Below are positions 19,453 to 45,644 of a stretch of DNA of 64,000 nucleotides, piece after piece; the stretch's first letter is position 1; every line of letters begins with the position of its first letter. Position numbers and translations under genes: made by a program. The notes under the pieces were generated by a model. It saw nothing but the letters and a program-made list of their open reading frames with translations, had not been told where the DNA came from and made no database searches. This DNA is from Rhodospirillales bacterium (GTDB lineage: Bacteria > Pseudomonadota > Alphaproteobacteria > Bin95), in contig JAYQLI010000035.1 of the NCBI GenBank assembly GCA_038143065.1, positions 384,001 to 448,000 on the forward strand, in the 5' to 3' direction.

Positions 19453-20462
19453 ATGTCAAACCGGTTGCGCATGGCGCTGGTCCGGGCAGGGCAGGCATTG
19501 CCTGCTTTGCTTGGGGTCGTGGTAGTAAGCTTTATTCTGACACGAGCCTTGCCGGGTGATCCAGCTGTTTATTTTGCTGGTCCCGCGGCTGACGCGAATT
19601 CTATACAGCAAGTCAGAGAGTCCCTTGGACTTGATCGTCCTTTAATGGAGCAATTTTTCATTTATCTCGGAGACCTTCTTGTTGGGGATCTTGGGGTTTC
19701 AATATCTACAGGGCAGCCTGTGTTGGATGAATTGTCACGCCGACTTCCAGCCTCTCTTGAATTAACTTTAGGGGCATTGTTGTTATCGCTTACTGTCGCT
19801 GTCCCAATGGGCATTCTGGCTGCAGTGCGTCCCGGGTCGATTTTTGACCATGGTTGCCGGGTGTTTGCTACGGCAGGAGTATCGTTGCCCACCTTCTTTA
19901 CTGGTATCGTATTAGTTTTTGTTTTTTATTATCTTTTAGGATGGGCTCCTGCTCCTGTTGGGCGGCTAGACTTTGCTTTTTGTCCCCTCCAACTATCACC
20001 GGATTTTACACTATAGATGCGGTATTAGACGGTGACGCTGACACCGCAATAGCGGCGCTGGGTCAATTGCTTTTGCCGGTAATCACTTTAGCTCTTTTCA
20101 CCTTAGCTCCAATCACTCGTATGACCAGGGGTGCAATGTTACAGGCGCTAGGTAGTGATTTTATTCGGACTGCTCGAGCTGCAGGTTTGCCTTCCAAAAC
20201 CGTGATAAATCGGTATGCGTTTCGTAATGCCATGCTCCCAGTGCTGACAACTCTGGGCATGGTATTTTCCTTTACCCTCGGCGCAAATGTTTTGGTGGAA
20301 AAGGTGTTTGCCTGGCCAGGAATTGGCTCGTTTGCAGTGGATGCTTTGGTTGTTTCCGACTATGCGGCCGTTCAAGGTTTCGTTTTGTCAATGGCGATTT
20401 TGTTTGTTTTATTAAATTTGCTGATAGACATTGCGTACACCCTCATCGACCCAAGGATTTAG
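19453..20462 (+). CDS. ABC permease, DppB/OppB type (frameshift near 19980)
   Basis: LPGDPA, LGLDRPL, RLPASLEL, DFIRTARAAGL, EKVFAWPGIG, IDPRI. Confidence 0.92.
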
Positions 20463-28115: not shown

Positions 28116-29182
28116 CTAATGTGAGAACGGCCAAACCCGGAAATAATTCGGACGTTAATCCACAAACGGTTTAATCCATCTGGTTCCACAATCAGAAAGA
28201 AGATGATCAGGACACCAAAAGAATTTGACGCAATTGTGAAATACTTTGAGCAAGAACGTCTGGTTCAACAAACAATGACCCGACGTTCTCCATAACTAGC
28301 CTTATTGCAATTGGCAGAAGACTTATGAAGAAAGCACCAAAAACAGATCCAAGAACCGATCCTAAGCCTCCTATAATTACCATTGACAAGTAATCAATCG
28401 ACACACCAAGCTGGAACTGTTCGTAAGATGCGATACCTAAATAATAGGTATAAAGTACACCTGTGACACCGGCGTAGAACGAGCTTATGGCGAATGCATA
28501 AAGCTTATATTTGAAGACGCTTATTCCAATAATTTCTGCTGCAATATCCTGGTCACGGATGGCAACAAAAGCACGGCCCACCCGGCTCCGAACAAGGTTT
28601 TGTGTGGCGATTACGGCGACAACAGCTACTATAAGTAGGAAGTAATATAGTTCTGTAGGGCTATCTAGTTTTTCACCGAGTAGGGTAGGGGGCGAGCCAC
28701 CTCAATGGAAGCTTGCGCACCACCAGAGATAGAAGGTGAATGGTTGATAATCCACTCGATAATAAATTGTGCAGCCAATGTAGCAATCGCAAGATAAACA
28801 CCTTTAATGCGCAGTGAGGAACACCCACAATAATGCCTATGGCAGCTGCCATCAGGCCGCCAGCAGGTAGTGTTATTAAGAATGGTAAGTCGAATTTCGT
28901 TGCAAGATTAGCGGCTGTATATGCGCCCACTGACATGAATGCCGCGTGCCCGATAGAGAGCTGGCCTGCGTAGCCTAGAAGAATATTTAGTCCAAGAGCG
29001 CCTACAGTTGCGATTGCGACAAGGCTTAGGAGAGTGAGGTAGTACTCACTCATCACCAATGGGGCGGCGATGAAGAATAAAACCAATAAGGCAAATGCCG
29101 AGAAGCGCGAAATTGGTAGGGGATAGAGCCCCATATCCGATTTGTAGTTGGTCTTATAATAACCAGACTCGCGGTAATACAT
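28116..29182 (-). CDS. ABC permease, LivM-like (several frameshifts)
   Basis: LGLNILLGYAGQLSIGHAAF, GRAFVAIRDQDIAA, IIGGLGS, C-terminal NYFRVWPFSH* at 28116. Confidence 0.88.
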
Positions 29183-29186
29183 GAGC

Positions 29187-30085
29187 CTAAATCCTCTCGA
29201 TCAACTTACGGCCTAACAAGCCGTAAGGCCTTATCATCAGCATGATAATCATCAATACGTAGGGGGTGAAATCCTTGGTGCCGCCACCCACATACGGATC
29301 AATAAACCCAGCAGCGAGAGCCTCGGCTACCCCAACTATTATCCCGCCAATAACAACGCCAATGATTGAATCAAGGCCTCCTAAAATCACAACTGGGAAC
29401 ACCTTTAATCCAACTAGAGCCAATTGGGTATCGACGCCTGACGCGCTTCCCCAAAGTACCCCGCCCAACATTGCAACAATGCCAGCCATCACCCATGCAA
29501 GTGCAAAATAGCGTGCAACGGTGATGCCCATCGCTCGCGAGACTTGATGGCTATCTGCCACTGCCCGCATTGCAACTCCTTTGCGGGTTTTTAGAAATAA
29601 CCATCCAAAAATAAGAAGGAAGAGGATACTAGTACCTGCGCCCAGGAGTTGAATGGGAGTGAAGAAAAACGGCCCAATGATAACTGGATAATCTTCAATC
29701 GGTAGAGTGATACCTCGAGGTGCAGCGCCAAATACCATTGGGCCAATCCCTCGAAGAATAAAGGCAAGACCAATAGTTGCCATAATAATTGCTACGATGG
29801 GGCGACCGATTAGTGGTCTTAAAACCACTCTTTCAAGCGCAATGTTGAAGGCAATCATGAAGATTAGTCCTGCAAAAGGGCCAACCACAGAGGAAACTCA
29901 TAAGCAGCGCTAGCGAGTCCAGATATGACTATACCTGCAATCATAACGAACTCACCCTGCGCGAAGTTTATCGCATCTGTTGCCTTGTAAATAAGAACAA
30001 ACCCTAGGGCTACCAATGAGTACATCAAACCGTTGGCTACACCTTGGCCAAATAGTTCGATTGCGAATGCCATATCACCGCTCAT
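29187..30085 (-). CDS. ABC permease, LivH-like (frameshift near 29880)
   Basis: ALGFVLIYKA...INFAQGE, GVAMRAVAD, VILGGLDS, RPYGLLG. Confidence 0.9.
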
Positions 30086-30095
30086 CCGCCTTCTC

Positions 30096-31997
30096 CTATG
30101 CCGCGTCTTGTATTTTGAGGTTCATGTCAACGTGGCTCTTCCGGCCATCCTCAAACGTAACCTCAGCACGGAGGTCAACCACTGAAGCGCCTGAGTAAAA
30201 TGCTGTGATGACGGGCTCATATTGCTCCGCTATAAAGCTCCGACGCAGCTTCCGCGTTCGGGTTATTTCAGCATCATCAGCATCAAAATCTTTGCCTAGG
30301 ATTAGGAACCGTTTTACTTGAAGAGTCTCAGGTAGAGTGCGATTTATACCAGATACCTCTGCTGAAATTAAATCCAGCACCTCCTGCTTCTGAGATAGGT
30401 CCATATAATTTGTATAAGGGAGAGTTTGTCTTTCCGCCCATTTGCCTACAGTATTGAAGTCAATGGCGATCATTGCGCAAACAGAGGGTCGCTCATTACC
30501 AAATGAGATTGCTTCGGCGATATACGGGCTATATTTCAGTTTATTTTCAACAAATTGAGGTGCAAAAGCCGAGCCATCTTCAAGTTTTCCAACATCTTTG
30601 GCTCTATCGATGATTGTAAGTTCACCGTTTGCTTCTAAGACACCGGCATCACCGGTTTTAAACCAGCCATCTTCAGAAACTGCTTCTTTAAAGGCATCCT
30701 CATTTTTGTAATAGCCGACGAAAACATTAGCGCCCTTGACTTGCAATTCGCCATTATCAGCAATTCGAAGGTCAATACCTTCTATTGGTTTTCCAACGCT
30801 ATCAGGATTTGCTTCACCGTCTCGTTGGATTGAACCAAGCCCTGAAATTTCTGTTGAACCATAAACTTGTTTTAGGTTTATTCCGAGCGCTCTAAAGAAG
30901 CGGAATGTATCAGGACCTAAAGGAGCACCACCTGTAAGTGCCCAACGGGCCCTTCTCAAACCAAGTTGGTCTCTTATGGGTGAATAAATAAGAAGTTCAC
31001 CAAGTGCTAAATTTATCCTATCGCCGAGACTAGGAGATTTTCCATCCTCTTGCTTGCGCATCACATTAATAGCTGCACTGCTGAAGCGGTTGTAAACAAA
31101 TTTCTTTAGACCGGTGATGTCTTCAGCTTTTACCTGGATGTCGGAAAGAAAGTTTTCCCACGCCCTGGGTGCCGCTAGAATACCGGTCGGTCCCAATTCA
31201 CGCATATCACGAAGAAGCGTCTCTGGTCCTTCAGGGCAATTGCATGACGCTCCAGTCAACAAGCTTGTGGCTAAGCTATAGGTTACATCACCTACCCAAG
31301 CCATTGGGAGGTAAGAAAGAAAGTCATCACTTTCCCGAACATCTTCAACTGATACGAAGGCTTTAGCTGCGGCTACGAGATTAGCGTGGTTAAGCATAAC
31401 CCCTTTAGGCTTTCCTGTAGTGCCTGACGTATAGCACATTAGAGCTACCGTATTCGCGTCAAGCGCCTGAACGCCTGCTTCGTAAGCCGCTCGATCACCG
31501 TTAACGCCTAACTCAATAACTGCTTCATAGGATTTAAGTAATTTGTGATCATAATCACTTAAGCCACGATCATCGCAGTATACAATTTGTTTTACCTGGG
31601 GTAGGCGGTCTTCGATCGACAGCATCTTGTCGACCTGTTCTTGGTCTTCTGCAAAAATAACGGAGACATCTGCATCACTAAGAACGAACGCAAGCTCATC
31701 TGCGATGGAATCCTGATAAACAGGTACTGATGCTCCACCTAATGCCTGAGCCGCTAATTGTGCCCAGTAAAGTCTGGGGCGATTATCACCAATGACAGCG
31801 AGCTTATCGCCTGCGCCAAAACCAACAGCTTTCAGCCCAAGAGCGAGTTCAGCTACTTGATCGGCATAATCTGACCAACTGTAGGTTTCCCAAATACCAA
31901 GATATTTTTCTCTCATAGCCGGTTTAGAACCGCGTATTTTACTGTTCTCAACTACCAGGCCAGGCAGTGTTTGTGCGTTGGTTGTAGCCTCGGTCAT
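30096..31997 (-). CDS. Long-chain-fatty-acid--CoA ligase (AMP-binding)
   Basis: YTSGTTGKPKG, YGSTE, GWFKTGDAG, IIDRAKD, EITRTRKLRR. Confidence 0.92.
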   Translation of the reverse strand: MTEATTNAQTLPGLVVENSKIRGSKPAMREKYLGIWETYSWSDYADQVAELALGLKAVGFGAGDKLAVIGDNRPRLYWAQLAAQALGGASVPVYQDSIADELAFVLSDADVSVIFAEDQEQVDKMLSIEDRLPQVKQIVYCDDRGLSDYDHKLLKSYEAVIELGVNGDRAAYEAGVQALDANTVALMCYTSGTTGKPKGVMLNHANLVAAAKAFVSVEDVRESDDFLSYLPMAWVGDVTYSLATSLLTGASCNCPEGPETLLRDMRELGPTGILAAPRAWENFLSDIQVKAEDITGLKKFVYNRFSSAAINVMRKQEDGKSPSLGDRINLALGELLIYSPIRDQLGLRRARWALTGGAPLGPDTFRFFRALGINLKQVYGSTEISGLGSIQRDGEANPDSVGKPIEGIDLRIADNGELQVKGANVFVGYYKNEDAFKEAVSEDGWFKTGDAGVLEANGELTIIDRAKDVGKLEDGSAFAPQFVENKLKYSPYIAEAISFGNERPSVCAMIAIDFNTVGKWAERQTLPYTNYMDLSQKQEVLDLISAEVSGINRTLPETLQVKRFLILGKDFDADDAEITRTRKLRRSFIAEQYEPVITAFYSGASVVDLRAEVTFEDGRKSHVDMNLKIQDAA

Positions 31998-32003
31998 ATC
32001 TGC

Positions 32004-32819
32004 TTATTCCTGCAAATGTGAGGCGCCTAGGTAGGCGCGTATGACGGCAGGATCAGCTTAGACCTGCTCCGGCGTTCCATCAGAAATTTTCTCACCCTGA
32101 TCAAGGACAACAATGTGGTCTGATATATCCATGACCACGCCCATGTCGTGCTCGATTAGAACAATTGTGGTTCCAAATTCTGCATTCACATCCAGAACAT
32201 AGCGAACCATGTCCTCTTTTTCTTCTTGGTTCATTCCTGCCATCGGCTCATCAAGAAGAAGAAGGGTAGGGTCTAATGCTAGGGCTCGGCCCAATTCTAC
32301 CCGTTTTTGCAGTCCATACGCCAACTCACCGGTGTTTGCTCGACGGAGATCCGAAATTCTAAGGAAATCAATGATTTCCTCAGCACGCTTCCGGTGGTGA
32401 ATTTCTTCTTTTTGGGCGGCTCCCCAATACATAAAGCAAGAGAGCACACTCGATTTCATCCGGACGTGGCGGCCCAACATAAGATTGTCTAACACCGTTA
32501 GGCCGCGAAAAAGAGCAATGTTTTGGAAGGTCCGTGCGATTCCGAGCTCAGCTATACCGTTTGGCTTCCGACCTATAAGCTCAGTCCCATCAAATTTAAT
32601 TGAGCCTTGGTCTGCTTTATAGAAACCACTGATCATATTCACTAACGATGTTTTACCTGCGCCGTTAGGTCCAATAATTGAGAAAATCGAGCCACGCTCG
32701 ACTTGAAGGCTCACTTCACGAACGGCCTGCACGCCGCCAAAGCTCTTTGCTACTTTATCGACAGTCAATATCGGGTCGCTGACGCCCCCGCTCGAGTCGA
32801 GCATGGACTGTTCCTCCAC
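32004..32819 (-). CDS. Branched-chain-type ABC ATPase, LivG-like (frameshift near 32060)
   Basis: GPNGAGKT, ARTFQN, LDEPMAG, IEHDM; shifted C-terminus DPAVIRAYLG, stop at 32004. Confidence 0.92.
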
Positions 32820-32900
32820 CTGTCAAATTTATAAATACAGACTTGAGCCTGTTTTTTTTGTTGGGTGAAAGCGTAGTACTAGAAATTTAAAAAGCGCAAC

Positions 32901-34337
32901 CTAAATCAAGAAATATTTTTTCCCCAGTAGCATACGAACTATCCACCGAATTTTGGGGCTATAGATTTTGGGCTTGAAAAACTCATGTGCTGCGCTTTTA
33001 GAAATTTCTGACCGTGTTGGATACGCCGCAATGACCTGTGTAAATATTTTAATATTTTGTTTTTTTTCAATAGCCTGAACCCACGGCAAGATCAGTTCGC
33101 CGGCACTTTGGCCTACAATAGATGCGCCATAAATTCTGCCCTTTGAATTTGTTATTACCTTCAAAAATCCTTCAGTTCTGCCCTCAGCCACTGCTCGATC
33201 GTTATCGGAAAAGCCTACTTTAAGAATTCTAGAATTTTCCTTAAGAAATTCTTTAGCTTGTGTTTCGGACATGCCCACATGCGCTAATTCTGGGTCGGTA
33301 TAAGTGATTCGGGGCACAGATTCATAGTTTGTTTTAGAAGGAAGCAGAAATAGCGCATTTTTTGATGACTACCCCAGCATGATAACCTGCAACATGGGTG
33401 TATTGTGGTCCTCCTGAAGCATCTCCAACGACAAACACACGATTGTTTGTCTTACTACGCAATCGCCTATCTACCAGAATTGCGCCATTAGCAGTGGCAA
33501 CATGCGCTTGTTCTAGCTCAAGGTTTTCGAAGTTTGGACGTCGACCCGCTGCAACCAGGAGATGGCTTCCATGTAGTACTCGACCATCTTGCAGTTCTAC
33601 TGAAAAGGTTTTGTTGTTTCTGCTAATGAGAGAAATTTTTGCATCTGATAAGACTTCAACGCCTTCTGCCTTAAGGGCGTCTATTACTACCTTCGATACT
33701 TCGAGGTCCTCTTTTTAAGCGGCCTAGATGAGTCTAGAACAGTTACTTTAGAGCCTAGTCGGCGGAAAGCTTGAGATAGTTCCATACCAATTGGGCCGGC
33801 TCCAATAATCAGGAGATGCTCTGGCAATTCTTGGTTTTCAAAAATTGTTTCGTTGGTGAGGTAAGGAACTTCCGAAAGTCCCTTAATATGTGGAACTACA
33901 GGTCTAGACCCTGTTGCTATTACAAAGCGCTTGGCCTGTACTCTAATTCCAGCAGCATCGACAGTCTTGCGGTCCAGAAATTTTGCATGTCCTCGTACAA
34001 CTCTTACACCTAAACTCTCAAAACGCTCCTGACTATCATGCGGTGCTATCTGCGATATTACCTCGTTTACGTGCGCCATCACCGTGTCAAAACTAATTGC
34101 GGGCTCTACATTAGAAATACCAAACTTAGCCCCTGTTCGGAGAGTTTGTGCTTGTTTCGCTGCAGCTAGCAGTGCTTTTGAGGGGACGCAGCCAGTGTTT
34201 AGGCAATCGCCTCCCATTTTGCCCTGTTCTATTAGGGTTACAGATGCTCCCATCTGAGCAGCACCCGCGGCAATAGATAGCCCGGCAGAGCCACCGCCAA
34301 TTATGCAGAGGTCTGAATACCAGGTCCCATTTACCAT
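32901..34337 (-). CDS. Class I pyridine nucleotide-disulfide oxidoreductase (MerA/Lpd-like; two frameshifts)
   Basis: GGGSAG, GGDCLNTGCVPSKA, GAGPIG.E, PRITYTDPELA, YPTRSE; no C-terminal CC pair. Confidence 0.88.
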
Positions 34338-34426
34338 TGGCTATCTTTCCAAAGCATGCTGAACACGCTTAGGGTTCCCCAATAAAAAATATTAAATGTC
34401 CAATCTTAGAGCTACGACCTAATATT

Positions 34427-35982
34427 CTAGATCTCTAGCTCTATCAAATATGGGCCATTGCTCGCCAGACCGTGCCGCAGCGCGCGAACAAGACTGTCGC
34501 AATCATTCGCGCGCGTTGCTTCAACCCCCAGGCTTTTGGACATATTCATCCAATCAATTGTAGGTCTATCTAAGCTTAACATATCTACTGCACGCGGACC
34601 TGGGTTCTGAACACCAACATTGGTAAGTTCACCTTGAAGAATTTTATACGCGCGGTTTGCAAATACGATGACTGTCACATCAAGATTTTCGCGGGCCATG
34701 GTCCACAAAGCCTGCACCGTGTACATCCCGCTACCGTCGCCCTCCAATGTGACGACTTTGCGGTCAGGCTGAGCTACCGCGGCGCCAATGGATACTGGTA
34801 ATGCATATCCAATGGATCCTCCCATCCCATTTAACCAGCAATGCGCAGGCGCATGAGAAGTTAAAGGGAAGAAGCCTCGACCAGAAGTTACAGACTCATC
34901 AACAACAATTGCATTTTCTGGAAGCGTTGCTCCAAGTACTGCCGCAATCTTATCAAGAGTTATCTCGCCAGTTGGCGCTTCTGGGCGATCAAGAGGGGCA
35001 ACATGGGCTGGGTCGAGGTTAATACAACCAAGCTCGATGGCTAGTGCCTCGAGAGCTCCTTCGAGGTCATCTTCTGCGCTAGCCAGATGGGTAATTTGGC
35101 AACCTTCTGCCGTGAGTACTGAGGGCTTATTGGGATAGGCAAAAAAAGCAACGGGCTGCTTGGCTCCACATAAGACCATATGCTGAGTGTCTTTGAGAAC
35201 ATTTCTTGCTAAGTCGACAACGTATGGAACGCGTTCTACCTTTACCCTGCCAGCCCCTCGTTGAAGGCGCGCGTTTTGACCCTCTGATAGTAGACGGCAC
35301 CCAGTCTTCGCAGCTATTCGACCAGCATATTCAAGAGCTTTCTCGCGAAGAGCGACACCGCCTAGCATGAGCATGCCTGCTTCGCCTGAGCTTAATAATG
35401 CCTTTGCGGCGGCAGTAACTTTCTCTCCAGATACTTTTGATCGTGGTGCTGGTGGCTTAGCAGTTACTGGGCTTCCCCTGCATTCCATGCTGTATCAGCA
35501 GGTAAGATTAAGGTAGCTATTTGACCAGGGGCAGTGCGAGCGGCTTCAACTGCTAATGCACCATCTGCTGCAATCCCCTCAGCTCTAGGGGATGATTTAA
35601 CCCAGTTGGACATGGGAGCAGCTACCGCTTCAATATCAGAAGTCAGGGGTGCATCATGTTCAAGGTGATATGTTGCATGATCTCCTACAACATTAACAAT
35701 GCCAGACTTAGCCTTTTTGGCGTTGTGTAAGTTTGCAAGGCCATTTGCTAATCCTGGGCCCAAATGAAGCAAAGTTGAGGCAGGACGGTCGGATAGTCTG
35801 TAATATCCATCTGCAGCGCCGGTCACTACACCTTCAAAAAGTCCTAGGACACAGCGCATACCCGGGACGCTGTCTAAGGCTGCAACAAAATGCATCTCGG
35901 AAGTGCCAGGATTTGTAAAACAGACGTCTACATCACTTGCAACTAGAGTGCGCACGAGGCTTTCAGCACCGTTCATGCTCAT
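34427..35982 (-). CDS. ThDP-dependent enzyme, acetolactate-synthase-large-subunit-like (frameshift near 35465)
   Basis: [43 protein letters not shown]. Confidence 0.9.
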
Positions 35983-36088
35983 ACTTTAATTCCCATATTA
36001 GCTATTTTCCGAAAATAGACGTTTAAAGATTGAGGCTCTGAAATTAACACATATACTCTAAGCAACAATTAAATAAGAGGACAGTGGC

Positions 36089-37276
36089 ATGGATGGTGTC
36101 CTAAACATGGCTAGCTTTGAAGCATCTCCAGGAGCCCGTGCTGCACAAATTGCTCCCTTGATAGATCAACTTGCTAACGAGATTGAGGCTAAGCGCAGGC
36201 TTCCGCCAGAGCTTCTCAAAGCGCTGCACGAAAATGGTCTTTATAAAATGCTTCTTCCGAAACCTTTTGGTGGCGAAGAGGCATCGCCATTGGAGTTTAT
36301 GGACGCAATCGAGACACTTGCTCGCCACGACGCTAGCGTGGCTTGGTGCATTGGTCAGGCGAATGGTTGCGCTATGACGGCTGCTTATTTGGAGCCACGG
36401 ATTTCAGAAGAAATTTGGAAGCACGATTCAGCTGGTGTGTTGGCCTGGGGGCCAGGTAAGGCGGAAGCGCAAGTTGTTGAGGGCGGTTACAGGCTTTCAG
36501 CGTCATTGATGTTTGCAAGCGGTGGAAGGCATGCCTCTTGGTTAGGTTGCCACACTATCGTGAAAGATGAAGATGGAACGGTTATTAACGGTCCCGATGG
36601 AACTCCCGAAGTTCGCACCTTCTTAATGCCAGCGGCAAACATAGAAATGTTTGATGTTTGGGATGTAATGGGTTTACGAGGAACAGCTAGCGATGGCTAC
36701 AGCGTTAAAGATGTATTTGTGCCAAATGCGTATGTAACAGCGCGCGACAAGGCACACGCTCGTGTTTATCAGTCACCGCTATATATCTATCCGTCTATGA
36801 CGATTTTTGCTCAGGGCTTTGCCTCCGTAGCACTGGGGATAGCGCAAGGTGTGCTTGGTGATTTTCTGGCCTTTGCAGGAGCCAAAACGCCCCGCTTAGC
36901 TAAATCGACCATTTCTGAAAGTGCAGTAGCGCAAACGGAAACAGCTCTTGCCTCTGCGCGTATTATGGCTGCGCGAGCATTTCTTCGTCAGGAAGCTGAA
37001 GCAATCTGGGGCGAAGTCTGTTCTACAAATGAATTAACCATTGCTGCGCGCGCTCGAATTCGCTTGGCATCAACATATGCAATTCACGAGGCGAAAGCTG
37101 CAGTTGATAGCCTTTTCGATTTAGCTGGCGCTGATGCAATTTTTAAATCCAAACCATTTGAACGCCGTTTCCGTGATATTCATACTGTCACGCAGCAACT
37201 ACAAGGACGTAAGACGCATTTGCAGTCAGTAGGAGCTTGGATGATGGGGAAGGATGCGGATCTGTCAGTAATGTGA
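36089..37276 (+). CDS. Acyl-CoA dehydrogenase-fold flavin-dependent hydroxylase (HsaA/HpaB-C2-like oxygenase)
   Basis: FASG..HASW, WDVMGLRGTAS, FERRFRDIH. Confidence 0.85.
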   Translation: MDGVLNMASFEASPGARAAQIAPLIDQLANEIEAKRRLPPELLKALHENGLYKMLLPKPFGGEEASPLEFMDAIETLARHDASVAWCIGQANGCAMTAAYLEPRISEEIWKHDSAGVLAWGPGKAEAQVVEGGYRLSASLMFASGGRHASWLGCHTIVKDEDGTVINGPDGTPEVRTFLMPAANIEMFDVWDVMGLRGTASDGYSVKDVFVPNAYVTARDKAHARVYQSPLYIYPSMTIFAQGFASVALGIAQGVLGDFLAFAGAKTPRLAKSTISESAVAQTETALASARIMAARAFLRQEAEAIWGEVCSTNELTIAARARIRLASTYAIHEAKAAVDSLFDLAGADAIFKSKPFERRFRDIHTVTQQLQGRKTHLQSVGAWMMGKDADLSVM

Positions 37277-37304
37277 TTTAGCAAATGAATTAAGGGCGTT
37301 CGAT

Positions 37305-37794
37305 CTAAGGCATCCTGTGACGTTCGTTGTAGTCTTGTAGATAATCTAGATATCCCTGCAAGATAAATGCGGCAGCAGATGAGTCTATTACTTCCCCGCG
37401 CCGTTTTCTGCTCAAATCTGCTTCCAGTAATACGCGTCTCGCTGCATTTGTAGACATTCGCTCATCCCAAAACGCTAAGGGAAAGTCTCGGATTTTAGTC
37501 AGATTTCGCGCAAATGCTTTAGATGCTTGTGCCCTTGGGCCAGGCTTTCCGGACAGATCAAGTGGTAGTCCTATGATAAGGGCACCGACTTCAGCTTGAT
37601 CAAAAAAGTTCAAAGATCTGCGTGGCAAAGTCCTCAAATCCTTTGCCTCGTCTTAAAGTTTTTCTTGCGGTTGCAATGGTAAGGTTAGGATCCGAGATTG
37701 CTATACCAACAGTAGCGCTCCCAACATCCAAGCCGGCAATGCGTGATAATTGAGGAGTTGTCTCATATAGTTCATTAGGCTTGCAGATAGGCAT
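37305..37794 (-). CDS. ruvX: YqgF/RuvX RNase H-fold nuclease (frameshift near 37605)
   Basis: GLDVGSATVGIAISD, IGLPL, WDERMST, IDSSAAAFILQ; divergent from gatC as usual in Alphaproteobacteria. Confidence 0.92.
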
Positions 37795-37865
37795 ATGCGA
37801 TGCTAATCGCCCTGCGCCGAATGTGGCAAGAAAAGTATTAATTTTTAGGATGTGAGGGAGCTGAT

Positions 37866-38153
37866 TTGTCCCTAGATCGAGAAACAATAGTTCGCATAGC
37901 GAAATTGGCTCGTATTGATGTGGAAGACTCCGAGATAGACGGTCTTGCCAGTGAGCTAAATAATATCCTGGACTGGGTAGAGACTTTGAACTCCATATCA
38001 ACAGAAGGCGTAGAGCCAATGGTTGGCGTTGGTGTCAGTAAAGCACCTCTTCGGATGGACAATAACAATGATGGGGACATCGCAGAAGCTGTCCTCGCAA
38101 ATGCTCCAGATCCTACTCCTCCATATTTTACAGTGCCCAAAGTGATTGAATAG
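37866..38153 (+). CDS. gatC: Asp/Glu-tRNA amidotransferase subunit C
   Basis: [27 protein letters not shown]. Confidence 0.96.
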
Positions 38154-38155
38154 AA

Positions 38156-39644
38156 ATGTCAAAGTCAGAATTATTGCAGCTTGATATTGCGACTGCTGGT
38201 AAGGGACTTCGAGATGGAGACTTTACTGCTATCGAATTGACCGAGTCATATTTGGATGCCGTTGAGGCCAGTCGCGAACTCAATATCTTTATTACTGAAA
38301 CGCCTGACCGTGCCATGGCGGATGCAGTAGCTGCTGATAAGAGCATAAAGGCAGGTACATCCAGCAAAATGACTGGAATGCCGATTGGAATGAAGGACCT
38401 ATTTTGTACGGAAGATATCAAAACAACAGCCGCTTCAAATATTCTTGGGGAGTTCGTCCCACCATATGAGTCAACGATTTCAGCTCGATTAAAAGCTGCC
38501 GGTACAATCCTTTTGGGAAAGACCAATTTGGACGAGTTTGCGATGGGCTCATCCAATACAACTAGTGCCTTCGGCGCAGCATTTAATCCTTGGGAATTAA
38601 CGGAAGATAAAAAGCCTTTAACGCCAGGTGGTTCCTCTGGAGGCTCTGCTGCTGCTGTAGCTGCTGGAGCTGCCATCGCGGCTACTGGAACGGACACGGG
38701 TGGGTCAATTCGGCAGCCTGCGGCTTTCTGCGGAATTGTTGGAATGAAACCAACTTATGGTCGCTGCTCTCGGTGGGGGTTGTAGCTTTTGCATCCTCTC
38801 TTGATCAGGCTGGACCTTTCGCTCGAACCGTTCGCGATGCAGCTATTATGTTAGAGACAATGGCGGGGCATGATCCAAAGGACTCAACTTCAGCTGCGCA
38901 AGCAACGCCGAATTTTGAAGCGCTAATAGATGGGGGCGTTAAGGAATGCGCGTTGGTATTCCCAAGGAATACCGTGTTGAAGATATGCCAGAAGAAATAG
39001 ACAGTATCTGGCGGCGTGGTATCGATATGGTTACCGCTGCTGGCGCGGAGGTGGTTGAGGTCTCATTGCCGATGACGATGTCGGCTCTGCCGACATATTA
39101 CATTGTAGCTCCTGCTGAAGCATCTGCTAACTTAGCTAGGTACGATGGTGTTCGATACGGTGCACGCGTTGAAGGCGACGATCTAAATGGGATGTACAGC
39201 GCAACGCGAGGACAGGGTTTTGGTAAGGAAGTTCGACGTAGGATAATGATCGGTACCTACGTACTTTCTGCTGGGTATTACGATGCCTATTATAAAAAAG
39301 CGCAGCGCGTTCGTACTCTAATATCTCAGGACTTTGACAATGTATTTCATTCGGTTGATGCATTGCTAACACCAACCACACCTGGTGCAGCTTTTCCTAT
39401 CGGTGAAAAAGAGGACGATCCAATTTCAATGTACTTGAATGACGTCTTTACTGTACCAGCAAGTCTGGCCGGGTTGCCTGCTATATCAGTGCCAGTTGGG
39501 TCTAATGAAAACGGCTTGCCGTTGGGGCTTCAGATTATAGGGAGACCTTTCGATGAAGGAACCGTCTTTAGGCTCGGTCAGGCTTTAGAGGATGCAGCTC
39601 AATTTGATAAACGGCCACGTTTAACGGTGGAAGGCTTCAAATGA
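38156..39644 (+). CDS. gatA: Asp/Glu-tRNA amidotransferase subunit A (two frameshifts)
   Basis: [49 protein letters not shown]. Confidence 0.97.
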
Positions 39645-41095
39645 GCACTTTAATAGAAGGTAGGGAAGGTCAGTGGGAACTGGTTATCGGTTTGGAGACC
39701 CATGCCCAGGTAACTTCTGAGGCTAAGCTTTTCTCTGGAGCTTCGGCTTCATTTGGAGCTAAGCCAAACAGTCATGTCAGCTTTTTAGATGCTGGGATGC
39801 CGGGCATGTTACCAGTTATAAATCAACGCTGTGTAGAAGCCGCAGTTATGACTGGTATTGCGCTCAATGCGCAAATTAATTTGGTCTCGATTTTTGACCG
39901 AAAGAATTATTTTTACCCAGATCTACCCCTTGGGTATCAGATTTCACAATTTTCCGATCCTATTGTGGGTAAAGGTTGGTTAGATATTGAGTTAGACGAA
40001 GGTTCTACTAAGCGGGTTGGAATTACTCGCCTCCATTTAGAGCAGGACGCAGGAAAGAGTCTGCACGATCAAGACCCATTTCGAACGTTTATTGATTTAA
40101 ACCGTGCTGGCGTAGGACTTATGGAAATTGTAACGGAGCCAGATATTCATTCTGCTGATGAGGCTGCTGCCTACGTAACAAAACTGCGCGAAATTCTTCG
40201 GTATTTAGGCGTTTGTGATGGCAATATGGAAGAGGGTTCACTGCGTTGTGATATAAATATTTCTGTCCGAAAACCTGGCGGCGCTTTGGGTACTCGAACC
40301 GAAATAAAAAACGTTAACTCAATTAGATTCATGCGTGAGGCCATTGCTTTTGAGGCCCGGAGACAGGTTGAGATCATCGAGGATGGGGGAAATATAGATC
40401 AAGAGACAAGGCTGTTTGATCCAGATCGCGGTGAGACTAGAGCTATGCGCTCAAAGGAAGATAGCCACGATTATAGATATTTTCCAGACCCTGATCTCCC
40501 TCCTCTTGTTCTCGATACAAATTACATCGCTGAAATGAAAAGCCAGATGCCCGAATTGCCAGACGCGAAACGTTCGCGTTTCGTAAATGAATTGGGGCTA
40601 ACTGAATATGATGCAAATGTAATAGCTGCGGATAAGAGTAGTGCTGCTTACTTTGAGAAGGCGGCAGAGAAGGCCGAGCCAAAGTTGATTGCCAATTGGA
40701 TCATGGGGGAAGTATTTGGGCGCTTAAATAAAGACGGCTTATCTATTGATGAGGCAAATGTTGCGCCTGAAGAGCTCGCAGCCTTAGTTATGATGATCCA
40801 GGATGGAAAAATTTCTGGGCGCCAGGCGAAAGAAGCGTTTGAAAAAATGTGGTCAGAGAGCATGGGTGCCCTCGAAGTAATTCAAGAACTTGGGTTGGAA
40901 CAAATATCTGACGATGGAGCGATAAGAGAATTGGTTGACGCTGTTATCTCTGCTAACCCAGATAAAGTGACGGAATTTAAAGCTGGTAAGACTCAGCTTT
41001 TAGGGTTCTTTGTTGGACAAGTCATGAAAGCCAGTAAAGGAAAGGCTAACCCAAAAGCGGTGAATGCAATTCTTCAGGAGAGTTTGGGGCAGTAA
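39641..41095 (+). CDS. gatB: Asp/Glu-tRNA amidotransferase subunit B
   Basis: [44 protein letters not shown]. Confidence 0.98.
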
Positions 41096-41187
41096 AAATT
41101 TATCTGCGCTGTAGGTTGCTGAGGCGGGTATTCTTTATTTTTGGCTTATTGAAATATTAAATTTCCATCGATGCGAAAGTTCTTGGA

Positions 41188-41216
41188 TTGACAGTATCTC
41201 TATAGGCTCATATCAA
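41188..41216 (+). promoter_or_regulatory. Sigma70-type promoter of tRNA-Ser
   Basis: TTGACA-17 nt-TATCAA ending 18 nt before the tRNA. Confidence 0.65.
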
Positions 41217-41234
41217 GCCGTTACAATTTATTAT

Positions 41235-41326
41235 GGACAGGTGGGTGAGTGGCTGAAACCAGTGGATTGCTAATCCGCCGTACCTTTAATTGGGTACCGA
41301 GGGTTCGAATCCCTCCCTGTCCGCCA
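41235..41326 (+). tRNA. tRNA-Ser (anticodon GCT)
   Basis: GGACAGG/CCTGTCC acceptor stem, anticodon loop TTGCTAA, long variable arm GTACC..GGTAC, GGTTCGAATCC T-arm, discriminator G and encoded CCA. Confidence 0.96.
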
Positions 41327-41530
41327 CTCTTTCATTAGTTTTTCACTAATTCTCACGCTGCACTTTTAAAAATGCCGCGTACATCAATGCTTATTGCTGT
41401 TTTAATACAAGCTCTCAAGATAGAGTATACCTGTTTTTTAGCGATTTTGTATCCTAGGCTTTATCAACTTGTGGCGCCAGCGTTGTAAATCAAAGACAAT
41501 TATTCTACCCCGATCTATTAGGTTGCAGGA

Positions 41531-44500
41531 GTGACGCTGTTGTCTCTAACGACCCTTCAGGAAAAGTTCTTGTCTCGTGCGCTCGACGTGGAAGAAGATG
41601 CACTATCTGAACAAATTTTCGAGATAAGAGACTATCTTGAAAACGAGATTGTTGTTGTTGAGGGGACTTCCAACGACGAGGCATATGTGGTCGTTGAGGG
41701 CTCTGTGCGGGTTACCACATTTAATCACCAACAAAATCTATAGTCTTAGAATTAAAGGGAATTTCATCACTTGTTGGTGAAGAAGCTTGTTATTCATTTA
41801 ACAGCGCTCACAGAAACACGATTAAGGCAGCAGAAAAATTAAAAGTCGTCGTGATCCCAGGTTCCTTCATTAGAAAGTTATTTCGACAGAGAAGGAATTC
41901 TTCAAGTTTTATGTCTCAAGATGATCGTTCGGAGGCGCTTAGTAAGCTAAGTAACCAATCCTCAATTGGAAAGGATATTGCTGAACTTTTACAAAACGAA
42001 AGTGAGATCGAAACAAAATCCCTCAAACCAGGAGAAATTTTGTTCTCCGAAGGTGATAAGGCAGAGTTTTCTTGTTTGATTTTGGCTGGAAAAATAGAAG
42101 CACTAAAATGGGAAAAAAGTTCTCAAAAAATTGTTGGTAGTTCTGGTGTTGGGACCTTTGTAGGCGAGCTGGGTGTCCTGGAAAACGCACCCAGAGCGGC
42201 AACTGTACGCGCTATTGAGAACACCGACCTTTTGATAATACCTGCTGCAGTTGTTCGGAAAATTTGCACTGTATCAAAAGCACAAGCTCTGACTTCAGCT
42301 TTGAAGGCGGGTTATAATTTTTCAGGGCGAGGGACCACATTCAGTGTGGTCATTCCCGGAGAAACGGAAGACAGAGTTTCAACAACAATAAAGCTACCTG
42401 GCAATCGTCAGATAGCAATATCACGAACCCTTATGTCTGAGATGGTTGTCGCCCATGATGGGCAAGTTTCTGACAAAAAATTAATTTCTCATGATGGCAG
42501 ATATCGCATTGAGGTTCTTGATGGATTGCCAGTCCGTATTGAAGGGGCTCAAGACTGGCCTGATCTCCCAAAGCTTATGGATCGGATGCTTTCTGGAGAT
42601 GTTCTAGAGCCATGGCGATTGGTTGCATTTGAGGCACATGGAACGTTGATGTTTTCTGAAGAGGACGAAACATCAACCGATGCAGTAGTGTGTGCATGCA
42701 CGGGTGTCACCAAATCTGGAATTCGAAACCACGCACTTTCGGGCGTCACGACATTACAAGAAATTGGAGAAGCTTGCGGCGCTGGCAGTATTTGTGGCGG
42801 CTGTAGAAACAGGCTCTCGAATCTTTTAGGCCGTGAAAATTTTAATATGTGTCAGGCTAATGTTGAACCATTGAGTGAGGGTTCGGTTAAAGTAGTTCTT
42901 CGTTCAATACGTGACAAAATACATAAACCTCTTCCAGGACAACATGTATCCATTGATGGCCTTATCAAAGGCAATTGGGTTTCTAGGAGTTACACTGTCG
43001 TAGATGGCGACGAAAATCATATCGAGCTTGGCGTAAAGATTGAAGAACAGGGAACGTTTTCGCGCTGGCTATCAAAAACGGGTGATGGCTCACTGGTTAG
43101 GGTCTCTAACCCACAAGGTGAAGAAATTCCAAAGGCGGGGGAAGGGCTTCTATTTGTTGTTGCGGGGATAGGAGTTACGCCTGCTGTAGCTGCTCTAAGA
43201 AATCTAAGAAATCATAGAAACCTTCATATTTGTTACATTTTCCGTGGAGAAAAAACGGCCGCGTTTTTATCAGAACTAAAATTAGCAGAAGAAGAAGGAT
43301 TATCAGTCTCTCCCTTTGGGATTCTTCCATTCAAGGCCGTCCTGACCTCTCTGCTTTCGTTAATGCTGGAGTTGCTGACAGTAAAGCAAAAGAGGCAATA
43401 GTTTGTGGGCCTGTATCTTTTGCCGAGACAACGGCTGAGATATTAAGATCTGCGAACCTTAATGTTCGCACTGAGACTTTCACACACACTGGAATTGCAA
43501 ATGGGCCACCTCTCATTTGCCCTGGCTCTTGGCGCAATGAAACTAATCGAACCCCGCCTAAGGCGTGGAACCAGTACTCCATTGCTAAGCCAGGTTCTAA
43601 AAAAGATGAAGCAGAGGCATTTCTAAGGCAGTTTTTTTGTGAGAATGGGGTGGAAGCTGCCTTTGAAAGCAGGTGGAATGAGGTTCAGGAAGAGATCAAG
43701 GAAACTGGAACTTATTGGCAAAGCATTGAGGAATTAACCTTTTGGTGCAAAGCTTAGTTGGCGTAATGCCTCCCGCTGCATAGGCCGTCTCTATTGGTCA
43801 GGACTAAGAGTTAGGGACTTCCGGCATTTAACTCATCCGGATGATATGGCTCAAGAATTAATAAGACACCTTGAAATAGCTTATAATGATGGCGACCTCA
43901 GCCCTACAATGACCGTTTTCAATCCTGGCGCCCCTGGAGCGCCCGCGGTGAGAATTTGGAACCCTCAGCTAATGCGATATGCCGCATATCGCGATGAAAA
44001 TAACGAAATAATTGGAGACCCCGCTCAATTACATCTTACCAAAGAGATAGAAGCTCTTGGTTGGAACGGTCCAAAAACAAAGTTCGATATGCTGCCTATC
44101 GTAATTCATGTTAATGGACAAAAACCCCGTTATTATGAAATCCCAAATTATGAGCGTTATGAAATTGAGATCCGTCACCCGGAATATCCTGGGATTAATG
44201 AGCTTGGTCTAAAATGGTACGCGATCCCAGCGGTGTCTGATATGGCACTTGATTGTGGAGGAGTGCTTTATCAATGTGCCCCTTTTAATGGTTGGTACAT
44301 GGGGACCGAAATTGGTGCTCGGAATTTCACCGACGTAGAACGCTACAACCTTTCAGTAAAAATTGCTGAAAAAATGGGTCTTGAAACTAAACGTGAAAAT
44401 AATCTCTGGCGGGATAAGGCCTTAACAGCAATGACAGAGGCAGTGTTAGATAGCTTTGAGGCAAAAGGAATAAAAAATAACCGATCATCACTCTGCAGCG

Positions 44501-44686
44501 CTCGAGTTTCTTCAATTTTGTGAAAATGAGCAGGACCAGACCCGTGAAGTGTATGGAGATTGGACTTGGCTAGTTCCCCCAATTGGGGGGTCAGCAACAC
44601 CTCTGTTTTTAGATGGTTGGAAGCACGAAGAATTAAAACCCGCTCTCAGGATGCAGGAACCAGATTATCCATTGCCAGACCCCTAA
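41531..44686 (+). CDS. nos: Multidomain nitric oxide synthase: cNMP x2 - BFD [2Fe-2S] - FAD/NAD(P)H reductase - NOS oxygenase (four single-base frameshifts)
   Basis: GTG 41531 behind AGGA. Fragments 41531.., 41851.., 43230.., 43741/43846.. and ~44477..44686 give FVGELGVLENAPRAATVRA, C-X-C-X31-C-X2-C, RSYT, AGIGVTP, VCGP, ETGTY....[60 protein letters not shown]. Confidence 0.9.
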
Positions 44687-44897
44687 CCCTTGGAGTTGTT
44701 CTCAAAAAAACTTGAGCTACGTGGTTCGCGGCATTTATAGCGCTCCCGGCTTTGCTGGCCGAGGACTGTGGATACTTAGGTCTCTAAAGAGCATGCGTGA
44801 ATTAAATTCTATGCTAAACAAGAGTGATTATCGGTGGAACAAGAAAAAGCTTTTGCTTGAGAAATTTACCTCAGGAAAAACACCTTGGAGATATGAA

Positions 44898-45644
44898 ATG
44901 GCATTTTCACCTAGAAAAGTTTTGAAATTTATTGGTCTACCGTTGCTAATCTCCGGAGTTAGCTTTTCTTCAGCACAGGCAAAAAATGATGGTGGCTATG
45001 TCGCTTCAATTGAGGCTGGATACGCGTACACCAAGGTCGATGGAAAAGATCAAACCTTTCCTTTAGACGGCGAATTAAACGGCTTGGATATTGATATTGA
45101 AATTAGATCTTTTGAAAATGTGGTGTTGGAGTTTGGTTATCGAAGAGATGAAGGCGAGTTCACAAGAACTGACGGACTCAAGACTGACTATAAAAGAGAT
45201 ATATTCAATATAGATGCCGGGTATAATTTTGCTCCCAAAGAGGCAACTAACGAAATTATTCCATTCATAGGTCTTACCTTAATAGATGCAAAAAACAGAG
45301 TAACTGTTGGTGGTGTTAACATCTTATCTACCCAAAATGCTCAAAAAGGACACTTAGGCCTTAGAGTTGGAAAGCGATGGGAAAAGGCATATGCATCGAT
45401 TTCAGGTGGGTGGGAATTAACCATTGATGAAGATCAAGAGGTGCCAACCGTTGGAATATCTCAAAAGGGTGAGGTGGAGAATTCATTTTTTCTAAAGGCT
45501 AAGATGTCCTATCAACTTACTGATATGCTGAGTATCGGGATCAAGCCTGAGTTCAGATATGATGATTTTGATCAAAAAAATGGTGCACGAAATGTGACCC
45601 AGGAAGAATATTCAGTGACAGTATTTACTGGGCTAAATTTTTAA
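44898..45644 (+). CDS. Outer-membrane beta-barrel protein
   Basis: GGAG before ATG 44898, signal peptide ending SAQA, alternating amphipathic strands, C-terminal Phe (VFTGLNF). Confidence 0.75.
   Translation: MAFSPRKVLKFIGLPLLISGVSFSSAQAKNDGGYVASIEAGYAYTKVDGKDQTFPLDGELNGLDIDIEIRSFENVVLEFGYRRDEGEFTRTDGLKTDYKRDIFNIDAGYNFAPKEATNEIIPFIGLTLIDAKNRVTVGGVNILSTQNAQKGHLGLRVGKRWEKAYASISGGWELTIDEDQEVPTVGISQKGEVENSFFLKAKMSYQLTDMLSIGIKPEFRYDDFDQKNGARNVTQEEYSVTVFTGLNF

Follow-up and report, generated by a model that had tools for sequence, protein, structure and literature searches.

The window, meaning the whole stretch of 64,000 nucleotides that was analysed, carries on its plus strand at positions 41531-44686 a nitric oxide synthase (NOS) gene that is distributed over five open frame pieces, as seen in the ORF listing together with a three-frame translation. 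A MAFFT DNA alignment of this gene with its ortholog from a genome of the same genus (G008) contains exactly four gaps, all of a single base, and when these four indels are followed, the pieces join into a gene of 3,156 nt, as long as the ortholog, with no internal stop. The pieces, the whole gene and the indels are as follows:

41522-41740, plus strand: piece 1, frame 2
41725-43398, plus strand: piece 2, frame 1
43218-43754, plus strand: piece 3, frame 0
43738-44520, plus strand: piece 4, frame 1
44474-44683, plus strand: piece 5, frame 2
41531..44686, plus strand: whole NOS gene, 3,156 nt, 1,051 codons plus stop, four indels followed
41737..41738, plus strand: indel 1, one base missing after 41737, where the ortholog has an extra C; inside the first cyclic-nucleotide-binding domain (CNB-A)
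43296..43299, plus strand: indel 2, one base missing after 43298 in a GG run; within the reductase, in its NAD(P)-binding part
43737..43740, plus strand: indel 3, extra T at 43740 (four T against three in the ortholog); inside the NOS oxygenase, just before the heme motif
44467..44472, plus strand: indel 4, extra A at 44472 (six A against five in the ortholog); inside the NOS oxygenase

The gene starts with GTG at 41531 and stops at 44684-44686; TTG at 41540 is an alternative start, since AGGAG (41527-41531) stands 8 nt ahead of it. The five pieces tile an intact database protein of 1,051 amino acids (P0003; residues 1-69, 71-589, 591-737, 739-980 and 982-1050) at 91-99% identity and therefore do not fit together by chance, which confirms that they are one NOS gene cut by four single-base indels. 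The preliminary description of this locus had proposed just such a joined gene of 3,156 nt and about 1,051 residues, with two missing and two extra bases and each shift inside a domain; the alignment bears this out, and the heme cysteine codon at 43777 and the stop codon lie where it had placed them.

The four frameshifts are most likely homopolymer indel errors of this assembly, with a gene that is intact in nature. It is very improbable that this strain carries a true pseudogene, with four real frameshift mutations and a NOS in the course of being lost, although four frameshifts do fall within 3.2 kb, and only one of nine other same-genus genomes searched has the gene, which is therefore dispensable in the genus. 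Similar indels break the essential gene gatA (38774 and 38942) and several other genes of the window, all of them whole in G008, and about 18 single-base indels were found over the 16.7 kb aligned to that genome, or approximately one per kb. All four indels of the NOS gene are single-base and located at or beside short one-base runs, and they are accompanied neither by a nonsense substitution nor by a larger deletion. In G008, the syntenic gene is an open frame of 1,051 amino acids, which is 87.2% identical at the nucleotide level; the four single-base indels account for the whole difference in length. Furthermore, Logan contigs from four public metagenome runs, which belong to four studies, are near-identical to the window gene, and wherever they cover one of the four sites, an indel restores the frame: a C is inserted behind 41737 and one G behind 43296 or 43299 in all four runs, one base is dropped at 43740 in all four, and one base is dropped at 44472 in the three runs that cover this site. 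The stops are thus lost, as had been anticipated for accurate reads; the run that matches the window gene best may be the source sample of the window assembly itself. The gene is also under purifying selection, with a dN/dS against the ortholog of 0.152 for the whole gene and of 0.124 for CNB-A, 0.134 for the second cyclic-nucleotide-binding domain (CNB-B), 0.254 for the adaptor, 0.053 for the BFD domain, 0.226 for the FNR-like reductase and 0.118 for the oxygenase (gatB, for comparison: 0.052). The disruptions are thus almost certainly not real in the organism, and the gene does not evolve without constraint. It was 'hidden', as the preliminary description put it, because homopolymer indels run throughout this assembly, gatA included, and it offers a clean example for genome scanning of an interesting gene that is masked by uncorrected errors of this kind.

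The joined protein has the domain order CNB-A, CNB-B, adaptor, BFD [2Fe-2S], FNR-like FAD/NAD(P) reductase and NOS oxygenase:

41588..41895, plus strand: CNB-A, approximately residues 20-122 (Pfam, profile search, Foldseek)
41962..42294, plus strand: CNB-B, approximately residues 145-255 (Pfam, 73.6 bits; profile search; Foldseek)
42313..42669, plus strand: adaptor domain, approximately residues 262-380 (modelled with seven strands and two helices)
42685..42828, plus strand: BFD-like [2Fe-2S] domain (Fer2_BFD; four cysteines, C-x-C ... C-x-x-C)
42841..43478, plus strand: FNR-like reductase with FAD barrel (R-x-Y-T) and putative NAD(P) Rossmann half (G-I-G-x-T-P, C-G)
43605..44668, plus strand: NOS oxygenase of the bacterial type, lacking the N-terminal Zn/pterin hook (Pfam, alignment, Foldseek)

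This is the order that had been read from the sequence at the outset, and the Pfam families cNMP_binding, Fer2_BFD, FAD_binding_6 and NO_synthase, all named then, were found in the window pieces; the NAD(P)-binding part was recognised by its motifs, the structural model and relatives.

The oxygenase is recorded in three consecutive window pieces, which match positions 7-56, 53-297 and 297-360 of the 362 positions of the NO_synthase profile (PF02898) with 28.7, 356.4 and 63.2 bits (cut-off 22.7), and the intact ortholog reaches 474 bits. The heme-thiolate cysteine (codon 43777-43779) lies within the motif W-R-N-x-x-R-C-I-G-R and the substrate-binding glutamate within G-T-E-I-G, both in the frame-1 piece of the window. 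All 92 aligned relatives share these two residues, the four BFD cysteines and the FAD and NAD(P) motifs without variation. A phmmer search matches the oxygenase to Bacillus subtilis NOS (bsNOS) at 1e-106, and Foldseek superimposes the AF2 model of the ortholog on bsNOS with a TMt of 0.96 and an rmsd of 1.3 A. The AF2 models were built from the 87%-identical ortholog rather than from the broken reading frame of the window; the full-length model has a mean pLDDT of 87.7 and a pTM of 0.56, so that it does not fix the arrangement of the domains. On the substrate side, the gate residue is Val, as in mammalian NOS, where bsNOS has Ile; a passage of PMC9500659 links Val at this position to efficient NO release.

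Within the reductase, Fer2_BFD scores 38.5 bits (cut-off 26) and FAD_binding_6 34.1 bits in the window. Pfam does not list NAD_binding_1 for the ortholog at E <= 0.01; PF00175 is recorded in several relatives, the 92 aligned relatives all have the G-I-G-x-T-P and C-G motifs, and the model of this half is Rossmann-like. No NCBIfam model reaches its cut-off, and the likeness to PaaE, Hmp, MmoC, CRP and NirB is at the domain level only. The Pfam search of the ortholog found no flavodoxin/FMN family, no globin or NO-dioxygenase domain and no EF-hand.

The N-terminal profile matches tandem CNB domains of PKG (7e-46), PKA RI-alpha (8e-30) and CAP (1e-17), and for the AF2 model of residues 1-390 (pLDDT 90.2) the best Foldseek matches are the CNB-A/B pairs of PKA RII-beta and PKG, at E values around 1e-16. 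CNB-A, as read from piece 1 of the window, stays below the cut-off of cNMP_binding (PF00027; 21.2 against 27.5 bits) because indel 1 cuts the domain, and the ortholog has two cNMP_binding stretches with 100.2 bits in total. The cassette of CNB-B is canonical and PKA-RI-like (G-E ... P-R-A-A-T). That of CNB-A keeps Gly-Glu and has His-Arg in place of the Arg-Asn of the family, the Arg standing one position later; the clade of the window protein (5 of 92 sequences) has His at the cassette Arg, and across the family Gly is kept in 88, Glu in 85 and Arg in 86 of the 92. In other clades, the planctomycete-type one included, CNB-B is degenerate (Glu in 60 and Arg in 75 of 92), and cNMP binding is therefore not universal at both sites. 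The adaptor has no Pfam or PDB sequence match and no usable match in the ESM Atlas, and Foldseek hits were swamped by NOS chains for the whole model and by CNB pairs for the N-terminal one; the domain always sits between a sensor and a BFD domain. In a complex prediction, the sensor-adaptor part (residues 1-380) and the oxygenase (693-1051) scored 0.46, rated as 'weak support', and the best of three controls 0.00. The runs, for which alignments made in this analysis were supplied and no interface was specified, agree in at least 82% of the contacts, with a partner pLDDT of at least 79. Of 80 solved complexes, 58 come up to the mark set for such predictions, as do two of 110 mismatched pairs, but only seven of the 80 solved complexes score 0.60 or below, together with both mismatches that pass the mark, and the result is not counted as evidence.

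CNB-NOS proteins occur widely in uncultured bacteria: of the 120 database relatives listed, 118 have this architecture, and automatic JGI names of relatives already read 'NOS oxygenase / ferredoxin-NADP reductase / CRP-like cAMP-binding protein'. A full-text literature search, which covered few subscription journals, returned no paper in which a cyclic-nucleotide-binding domain is combined with a NOS or with a P450 reductase. The architecture is thus recorded in databases, and no description was found in papers, although a published mention may exist; the earlier suggestion that it is uncharacterised holds as far as the papers searched are concerned, but the design is neither rare nor unrecorded. 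In NOS proteins of Sorangium, Nostoc, Coleofasciculus and Myxococcales, an EF-hand pair replaces the CNB pair in front of the same core of adaptor, BFD, FNR and NOS. The adaptor profile matched 314 representative clusters. Among 18 of these that were scanned, CNB domains are present in 17 and BFD in all 18; seven are fused to a cytochrome P450, one is an EF-hand NOS and one a partial CNB-NOS, and the remaining ones either stop behind the reductase or have different ends. A regular expression for the P450 heme motif found no match, although Pfam finds P450 domains. The sensor thus stays with the reductase irrespective of the oxygenase that follows.

No conserved neighbour gene and no operon partner emerged from ORF clustering across 80 related loci: NOS itself was found in 69 loci, and other families in eight at most, none of them recurring outside the genus Sorangium. 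This is as expected for a self-contained enzyme. The tRNA-Ser(GCT) gene between gatB and the NOS gene was considered as a possible insertion site; in five other same-genus genomes the match is limited to the tRNA, at which three contigs end. An Rfam scan of 41000-45000 returned the tRNA only, promoter- and terminator-like sites in this interval are no commoner than in shuffles, and none of the 20 runs holding the gene is on record as RNA.

Taken together, the window gene probably, though by no means surely, encodes an intact, self-sufficient NOS with an electron path from NAD(P)H to heme that is gated by a cNMP-sensing CNB-adaptor module. From the sequence, we infer that the enzyme synthesises NO and that its CNB pair binds cNMPs, and the domain content suggests gating by cAMP or cGMP. 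Electrons would pass from NAD(P)H to the FAD of the FNR-like reductase, on to the BFD-type [2Fe-2S] cluster and then to the heme-thiolate oxygenase, which is predicted to oxidise L-arginine to NO and citrulline. A cNMP, most likely cAMP at CNB-B, would bind the sensor-adaptor module and change its hold on the small BFD domain or the reductase, thereby switching the flow of electrons to the heme. The favoured mode is that of PKA, PKG and Epac, in which binding relieves autoinhibition and so activates the enzyme, but the effect could also run in the opposite direction. Six matches to class III cyclase domains were found in the genome. The preliminary description had spoken of a reversal of the animal NO-to-cGMP order, which is a framing rather than a result; its interpretation as a whole is partly supported, namely for the single gene, the domain order and the likeness to Sorangium NOS.

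The CNB folds might instead bind other ligands, or offer the reductase a scaffold for dimerisation or docking, in an otherwise self-sufficient NOS. CNB folds of the CRP/FNR superfamily bind heme, 2-oxoglutarate and other ligands, and both the His in the CNB-A cassette of the window's clade and the degenerate CNB-B of planctomycete-type relatives would fit such a role. We consider it rather unlikely, as CNB-B has the full cassette of PKA RI, CNB-A retains its Gly, Glu and Arg in 85-88 of 92 relatives, purifying selection acts on both domains and the best matches in sequence and fold are the cNMP-binding pairs of PKA and PKG; moreover, the sister architecture has a bona fide second-messenger sensor, the EF-hand pair, at the corresponding position. 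Still less probable is that the NOS chemistry serves metabolism, by mobilising arginine nitrogen or donating NO for biosynthetic nitration, rather than an NO signal. No H-NOX sensor was found in the genome, which is 97.6% complete, and such roles occur in other bacterial NOS proteins; syNOS, for instance, forms nitrate according to the abstract of PMC6104048 and passages of PMC12922734. Against a metabolic role stand the missing globin or NO-dioxygenase domain, the lack of a conserved neighbour or gene cluster across the 80 loci and the Val at the gate in place of the Ile of bsNOS.

The cNMP-gated NOS favoured here may be one case of a wider principle. Somewhat more in doubt than in favour, we tentatively propose that CNB-CNB-adaptor-BFD-FNR is a general second-messenger-gated electron-donor cassette, which is either mounted on heme-thiolate oxygenases (NOS, P450) or free-standing, NO synthesis being the output of cAMP/cGMP in this marine Rhodospirillales-like bacterium and of Ca2+ in the sister form of Sorangium and cyanobacteria. 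If this were true, messenger-switched NOS would have evolved independently at least two times in bacteria, on one reductase chassis. Little is known about how bacterial NOS activity is controlled, and a built-in cNMP sensor would provide a directly testable input and a bacterial counterpart to the control of animal NOS by calmodulin. That the sensor-reductase cassette also occurs alone or fused to P450 points to messenger-gated redox partners as a class, which would be of interest to signalling biology and as switchable biocatalysts.

The NOS of Sorangium cellulosum (scNOS) was reportedly studied by Agapie et al. in 2009. Passages of PMC4436077 and PMC9500659 place a reductase with a BFD-type [2Fe-2S] cluster, FAD and NAD(P)H sites ahead of its oxygenase; the window protein resembles it in the BFD and FAD domains and the predicted NAD(P)-binding half of its N-terminal reductase and in the bacterial-type oxygenase at the C-terminus, and the comparison drawn in the preliminary description was sound. 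The BFD domain of the window protein likewise precedes the oxygenase. Sorangium loci align from query residues 202-343 onwards (most of them from 264), and the adaptor is therefore at least partly shared. Sorangium strains (L066, L068), however, have an EF-hand pair in front of the adaptor and no cNMP_binding, whereas the window protein has two CNB domains and no EF-hand, which makes it a sister architecture and not the same one. In the EF-hand-type NOS of Nostoc (L071), a weak NAD_binding_10-like match lies ahead of the EF-hands.

SiliNOS of Silicibacter sp. TrichCH4B is described in passages of PMC4436077 as a 'full-length' alphaproteobacterial NOS with an N-terminal 2Fe-2S, FAD and NAD(P)H reductase, which is the likeness to the window protein. 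According to these passages, its oxygenase domain, supplied with H4B or H4F, converts N-hydroxyarginine to NO, and the full-length enzyme was not obtained in active form by expression; the text of the paper contains no mention of cyclic nucleotides. SiliNOS is not among the 80 loci compared here, and Silicibacter sp. TrichCH4B has an H-NOX partner, whereas none was found in the genome of the window. bsNOS shares 44% identity over the oxygenase and the same N-terminal boundary without the Zn/pterin hook, but it has neither a fused reductase nor a sensor, and its Ile beside the substrate takes the place of the Val of the window family.

With mammalian NOS and syNOS, the window protein has a fused reductase in common. 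Their electron delivery is switched by second messengers, through Ca2+/calmodulin in mammalian NOS and a Ca2+-responsive C2 domain in syNOS (PMC12922734, in part), and such switching is predicted here from the domains present. Both have a C-terminal diflavin (FMN and FAD) reductase, whereas the reductase of the window protein is N-terminal and contains a [2Fe-2S] domain; no calmodulin site was seen in it, which sets it apart from the mammalian type. For residues 1-255, the CNB pairs of PKG and of the regulatory subunits of PKA are the best profile and fold matches, and CNB-B has the R-A-A-T of PKA-RI. The tandem CNB domains of PKA and PKG drive a kinase, whereas those of the window protein are joined in cis to a redox enzyme, with an extra adaptor after the CNB pair.

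The nitric oxide synthase (NOS) gene (41531-44686, plus strand) is split in the assembly into five open pieces, which were found by ORF listing and translation between 41522 and 44686, lie in three frames of the plus strand and give the following Pfam matches:

41522-41740, plus strand: partial cNMP_binding, 21.2 bits, below the cut-off
41725-43398, plus strand: full cNMP_binding (73.6 bits), Fer2_BFD (38.5 bits) and FAD_binding_6 (34.1 bits)
43218-43754, plus strand: NO_synthase part 1, profile positions 7-56 of 362
43738-44520, plus strand: NO_synthase part 2, profile positions 53-297 of 362
44474-44683, plus strand: NO_synthase part 3, profile positions 297-360 of 362

A family search of the entire 4.63-Mb assembly found NOS in these three pieces and nowhere else. 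The same-genus genome G008, a metagenome-assembled genome (MAG) labelled Rhodospirillales bacterium, contains a single uninterrupted NOS frame of 1,051 amino acids, and gatB lies upstream of the gene in both G008 and the window. The two NOS genes, 3,156 nt each, are 87.2% identical, and their MAFFT alignment contains exactly four gaps:

after 41737, plus strand: window one base short
after 43298, plus strand: window one base short
43740, plus strand: window one base extra (T4 versus T3)
44472, plus strand: window one base extra (A6 versus A5)

The preliminary description had joined the pieces by four single-base shifts into one gene; the positions and signs of the shifts and the total length all proved correct, and the observation as a whole is confirmed. 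Furthermore, the five pieces lie end to end along database protein P0003, which is intact at 1,051 aa, with 91-99% identity.

The interruptions could reflect decay of the gene in this strain or errors of the assembly. A true strain-specific pseudogene would account for the four frameshifts; however, the same kind of indel is found in other genes. Alignment of 16.7 kb (28395-45079) to the G008 contig revealed some 18 indels of one base, most of them at short single-base runs, so the indels are not special to the NOS gene. In the window, gatA (38156-39644) lacks one base at each of two G runs (38774 and 38942), which breaks it into at least three frame pieces and splits its Amidase profile (positions 1-179 and 237-444), whereas gatA of G008 is an open frame of 534 codons. 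Further genes broken by indels in the window and whole in G008 are:

28673-29897, strand not given
32901-34340, strand not given
34427-35494, strand not given
37600-38019, strand not given

The genes for an SBP_bac_5 solute-binding protein (17781-19423) and an ABC permease (19453-20459) are split likewise, as is, outside the window, one tRNA-synthetase-family gene of the same genome. The pseudogene reading also conflicts with Logan contigs, which show presence rather than absence, from four public metagenome runs of four studies (marine, estuary and seawater; 95-99+% identity to the region); the best-holding run may have been made from the sample that gave the window. These contigs restore the frame at the covered sites: all four runs insert a C behind 41737 and a G at 43296/43299 and drop one base at 43740, and the three runs with cover at 44472 drop one base there. 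Finally, no internal stop is present in the NOS gene once the frame is followed, and every part of the protein is under purifying selection (dN/dS versus G008 of 0.152, 0.05-0.25 by domain; 0.052 for gatB). Region-wide indels, metagenome contigs and selection argue that the frameshifts are almost certainly errors and that the gene is real and almost certainly intact in the organism; a pseudogene is highly improbable. That the gene is hidden is an artefact of the assembly. The entire assembly probably needs polishing, and its indels make ORF-based readings of it unreliable. A 434-aa ORF with an ATP-dependent DNA ligase domain (PF01068; 7329-8630) shares about 80 nt with the ORF that follows and may likewise be broken by a frameshift.

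The protein anatomy was read on the intact ortholog P0001, which shares 87% amino-acid identity with the window's protein. Pfam detects two cNMP_binding stretches, Fer2_BFD (residues 386-433), FAD_binding_6 and NO_synthase (residues 693-1045, 474 bits), and a full-length AlphaFold2 model built with 92 relatives reached a mean pLDDT of 87.7 and a pTM of 0.56. The window's protein belongs to the NOS oxygenase family: the modelled oxygenase superimposes on B. subtilis NOS (bsNOS) with a TMt of 0.96 and an rmsd of 1.3 A, and phmmer aligns residues 693-1046 to bsNOS at 1e-106. This alignment begins at bsNOS residue 8, so P0001 lacks the mammalian N-terminal hook. The window's protein is not a mammalian-type NOS. 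All 92 aligned relatives share, without variation, the heme Cys with its W-R ... C-x-G-R context, the substrate Glu, the four Cys of BFD, the FAD motif R-x-Y-T and the NAD(P) motifs G-I-G-x-T-P and C-G. The NAD(P)H, FAD, [2Fe-2S] and heme domain chain, its NAD(P) part recognised by motifs and model fold, is complete within one polypeptide. Beside the substrate stands a Val (P-A-V, conserved to at least 90%), which mammalian NOS also has, whereas bsNOS has Ile; a review ties Val at this place to efficient NO release (PMC9500659).

A tandem sensor resembling that of PKA/PKG, followed by an adaptor, immediately precedes the small BFD domain. When residues 1-390 were modelled (36 relatives, pLDDT 90.2), the best fold matches were the CNB-A/B pairs of PKA RII-beta, PKA RI-alpha and PKG (E about 1e-16), and the N-terminal sequence profile matches PKG (7e-46), PKA RI-alpha (8e-30) and CAP (1e-17). 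The adaptor (residues 262-380) is modelled as a confident seven-strand, two-helix domain and gave no match in Pfam, PDB sequences or the Atlas. In the 92-sequence alignment, the cassette of the first cyclic-nucleotide-binding domain, CNB-A, is kept at Gly (88/92), Glu (85/92) and Arg (86/92), and that of the second, CNB-B, at Glu (60/92) and Arg (75/92). The window's own clade (5 of the 92) has His at the CNB-A Arg column and Arg one position later. Its CNB-B carries the full G-E ... P-R-A-A-T cassette, the PKA RI form, and therefore at least CNB-B looks competent for nucleotide binding. In the source genome (97.6% complete), class III cyclase domains are matched six times, and no H-NOX domain was found. 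Binding of a cyclic nucleotide might re-position the sensor-adaptor, thereby freeing or blocking the BFD shuttle between FAD and heme, and NO synthesis would then track cNMP levels. By analogy with PKA, PKG and Epac, activation is tentatively favoured, and cNMP gating of NOS is a well-motivated and testable hypothesis. A complex prediction of sensor-adaptor and oxygenase (score 0.46, best of three controls 0.00, rated 'weak support') is not counted as evidence.

The sensor is exchanged between CNB and EF-hand forms. NOS proteins of Sorangium strains, Nostoc, Coleofasciculus and a Myxococcales MAG align only from about residue 264-343 onward and carry, by Pfam, an EF-hand pair and no CNB before the same adaptor-BFD-FAD-NAD-NOS core (loci L066:4735-8403, L068:4786-8247, L071:4840-8439, L075:2267-5830 and L077:4732-8232), whereas a Polyangiaceae MAG has the CNB form. 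Two second-messenger sensors therefore occupy one position, and the EF-hand pair suggests a Ca2+-sensing form of the Sorangium cellulosum NOS (scNOS) type; no statement on this pair was found in the literature examined. The Nostoc protein also has a weak NAD_binding_10-like region N-terminal to the adaptor core.

An adaptor-only profile searched against 1.84 billion representatives yielded 314 clusters at E <= 0.001 (142 at E <= 1e-10), 18 of which were scanned with Pfam. BFD was present in 18 of these 18, CNB in 17 and EF-hands in one; two were NOS (one partial CNB form and one EF-hand form), and seven, of about 1,240-1,610 aa, were fusions of the CNB-CNB-adaptor-BFD-FNR cassette to cytochrome P450 (P0131, P0133, P0141, P0171, P0218, P0247 and P0207), one also with an N-terminal sulfotransferase. 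Some scanned clusters stop soon after the reductase (about 660-705 aa), others have an N-terminal FAD-oxidoreductase-like part, and P0139, P0158, P0165 and P0173 (844-883 aa) extend about 190 residues past the reductase with no Pfam family. Among the best 150 adaptor matches, 16 contain the NOS heme motif, 44 measure 600-730 aa and 48 fall below 600 aa, the last probably being fragments; proteins of about 690-710 aa form a size class that resembles the free-standing cassette. By these results the sensor goes with the [2Fe-2S]-FNR reductase and not with any one oxygenase.

The CNB-NOS architecture is common among uncultured bacteria and has been annotated automatically, some JGI names already spelling out its three parts. 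Of 120 relatives listed from 200 hits among 8,000 scored candidates, 118 combine NO_synthase with cNMP_binding at about 1,030-1,130 aa, the exceptions being a 705-aa partial protein and an EF-hand form; among the sources named for them are Alphaproteobacteria, Planctomycetota, Cyanobium, Sericytochromatia and Methylomirabilota. In species-representative genomes, relatives are encoded at 522 of 600 pattern hits, and among the best 80 are full-length forms from MAGs whose bin labels, which may be wrong, read Alpha-/Gammaproteobacteria, Verrucomicrobia/Opitutae, Planctomycetota, Acidobacteria, Myxococcota and Methylomirabilia. Distribution is patchy: the gene occurs in one of nine other genomes of the window's genus and, with the same query, in none of 31 more distant relatives. 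A tRNA-Ser(GCT) (41235-41326) separates gatB from the NOS gene; just past it the window has 23 extra bases relative to G008 (about 41336-41358), and the contigs of three other same-genus genomes stop at this tRNA. This site may be variable or island-prone, which would fit the patchy presence of NOS in the genus. The downstream ORF (44712-45644) weakly matches an outer-membrane beta-barrel (26.2 bits, short of the cut-off of 28.7), and its 5' part carries two compensating single-base indels versus G008 (44848 and 44874).

A literature search of incomplete coverage found no description of CNB-NOS or of a CNB-reductase-P450 fusion, and as far as it reached the CNB-NOS architecture is uncharacterised. 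A 2026 structural paper on cyanobacterial NOS, in its available text, notes auxiliary domains in some non-cyanobacterial prokaryotic NOSs and nothing further (PMC12922734). The closest known systems, scNOS and Silicibacter NOS, are self-sufficient bacterial NOSs of the same core type; the available text of PMC4436077 describes a 2Fe-2S/FAD/NAD(P)H reductase N-terminal to the oxygenase in only two organisms then known, and nowhere mentions cyclic nucleotides. The window's protein is a sister of scNOS, with which it shares this core but not the exact architecture.
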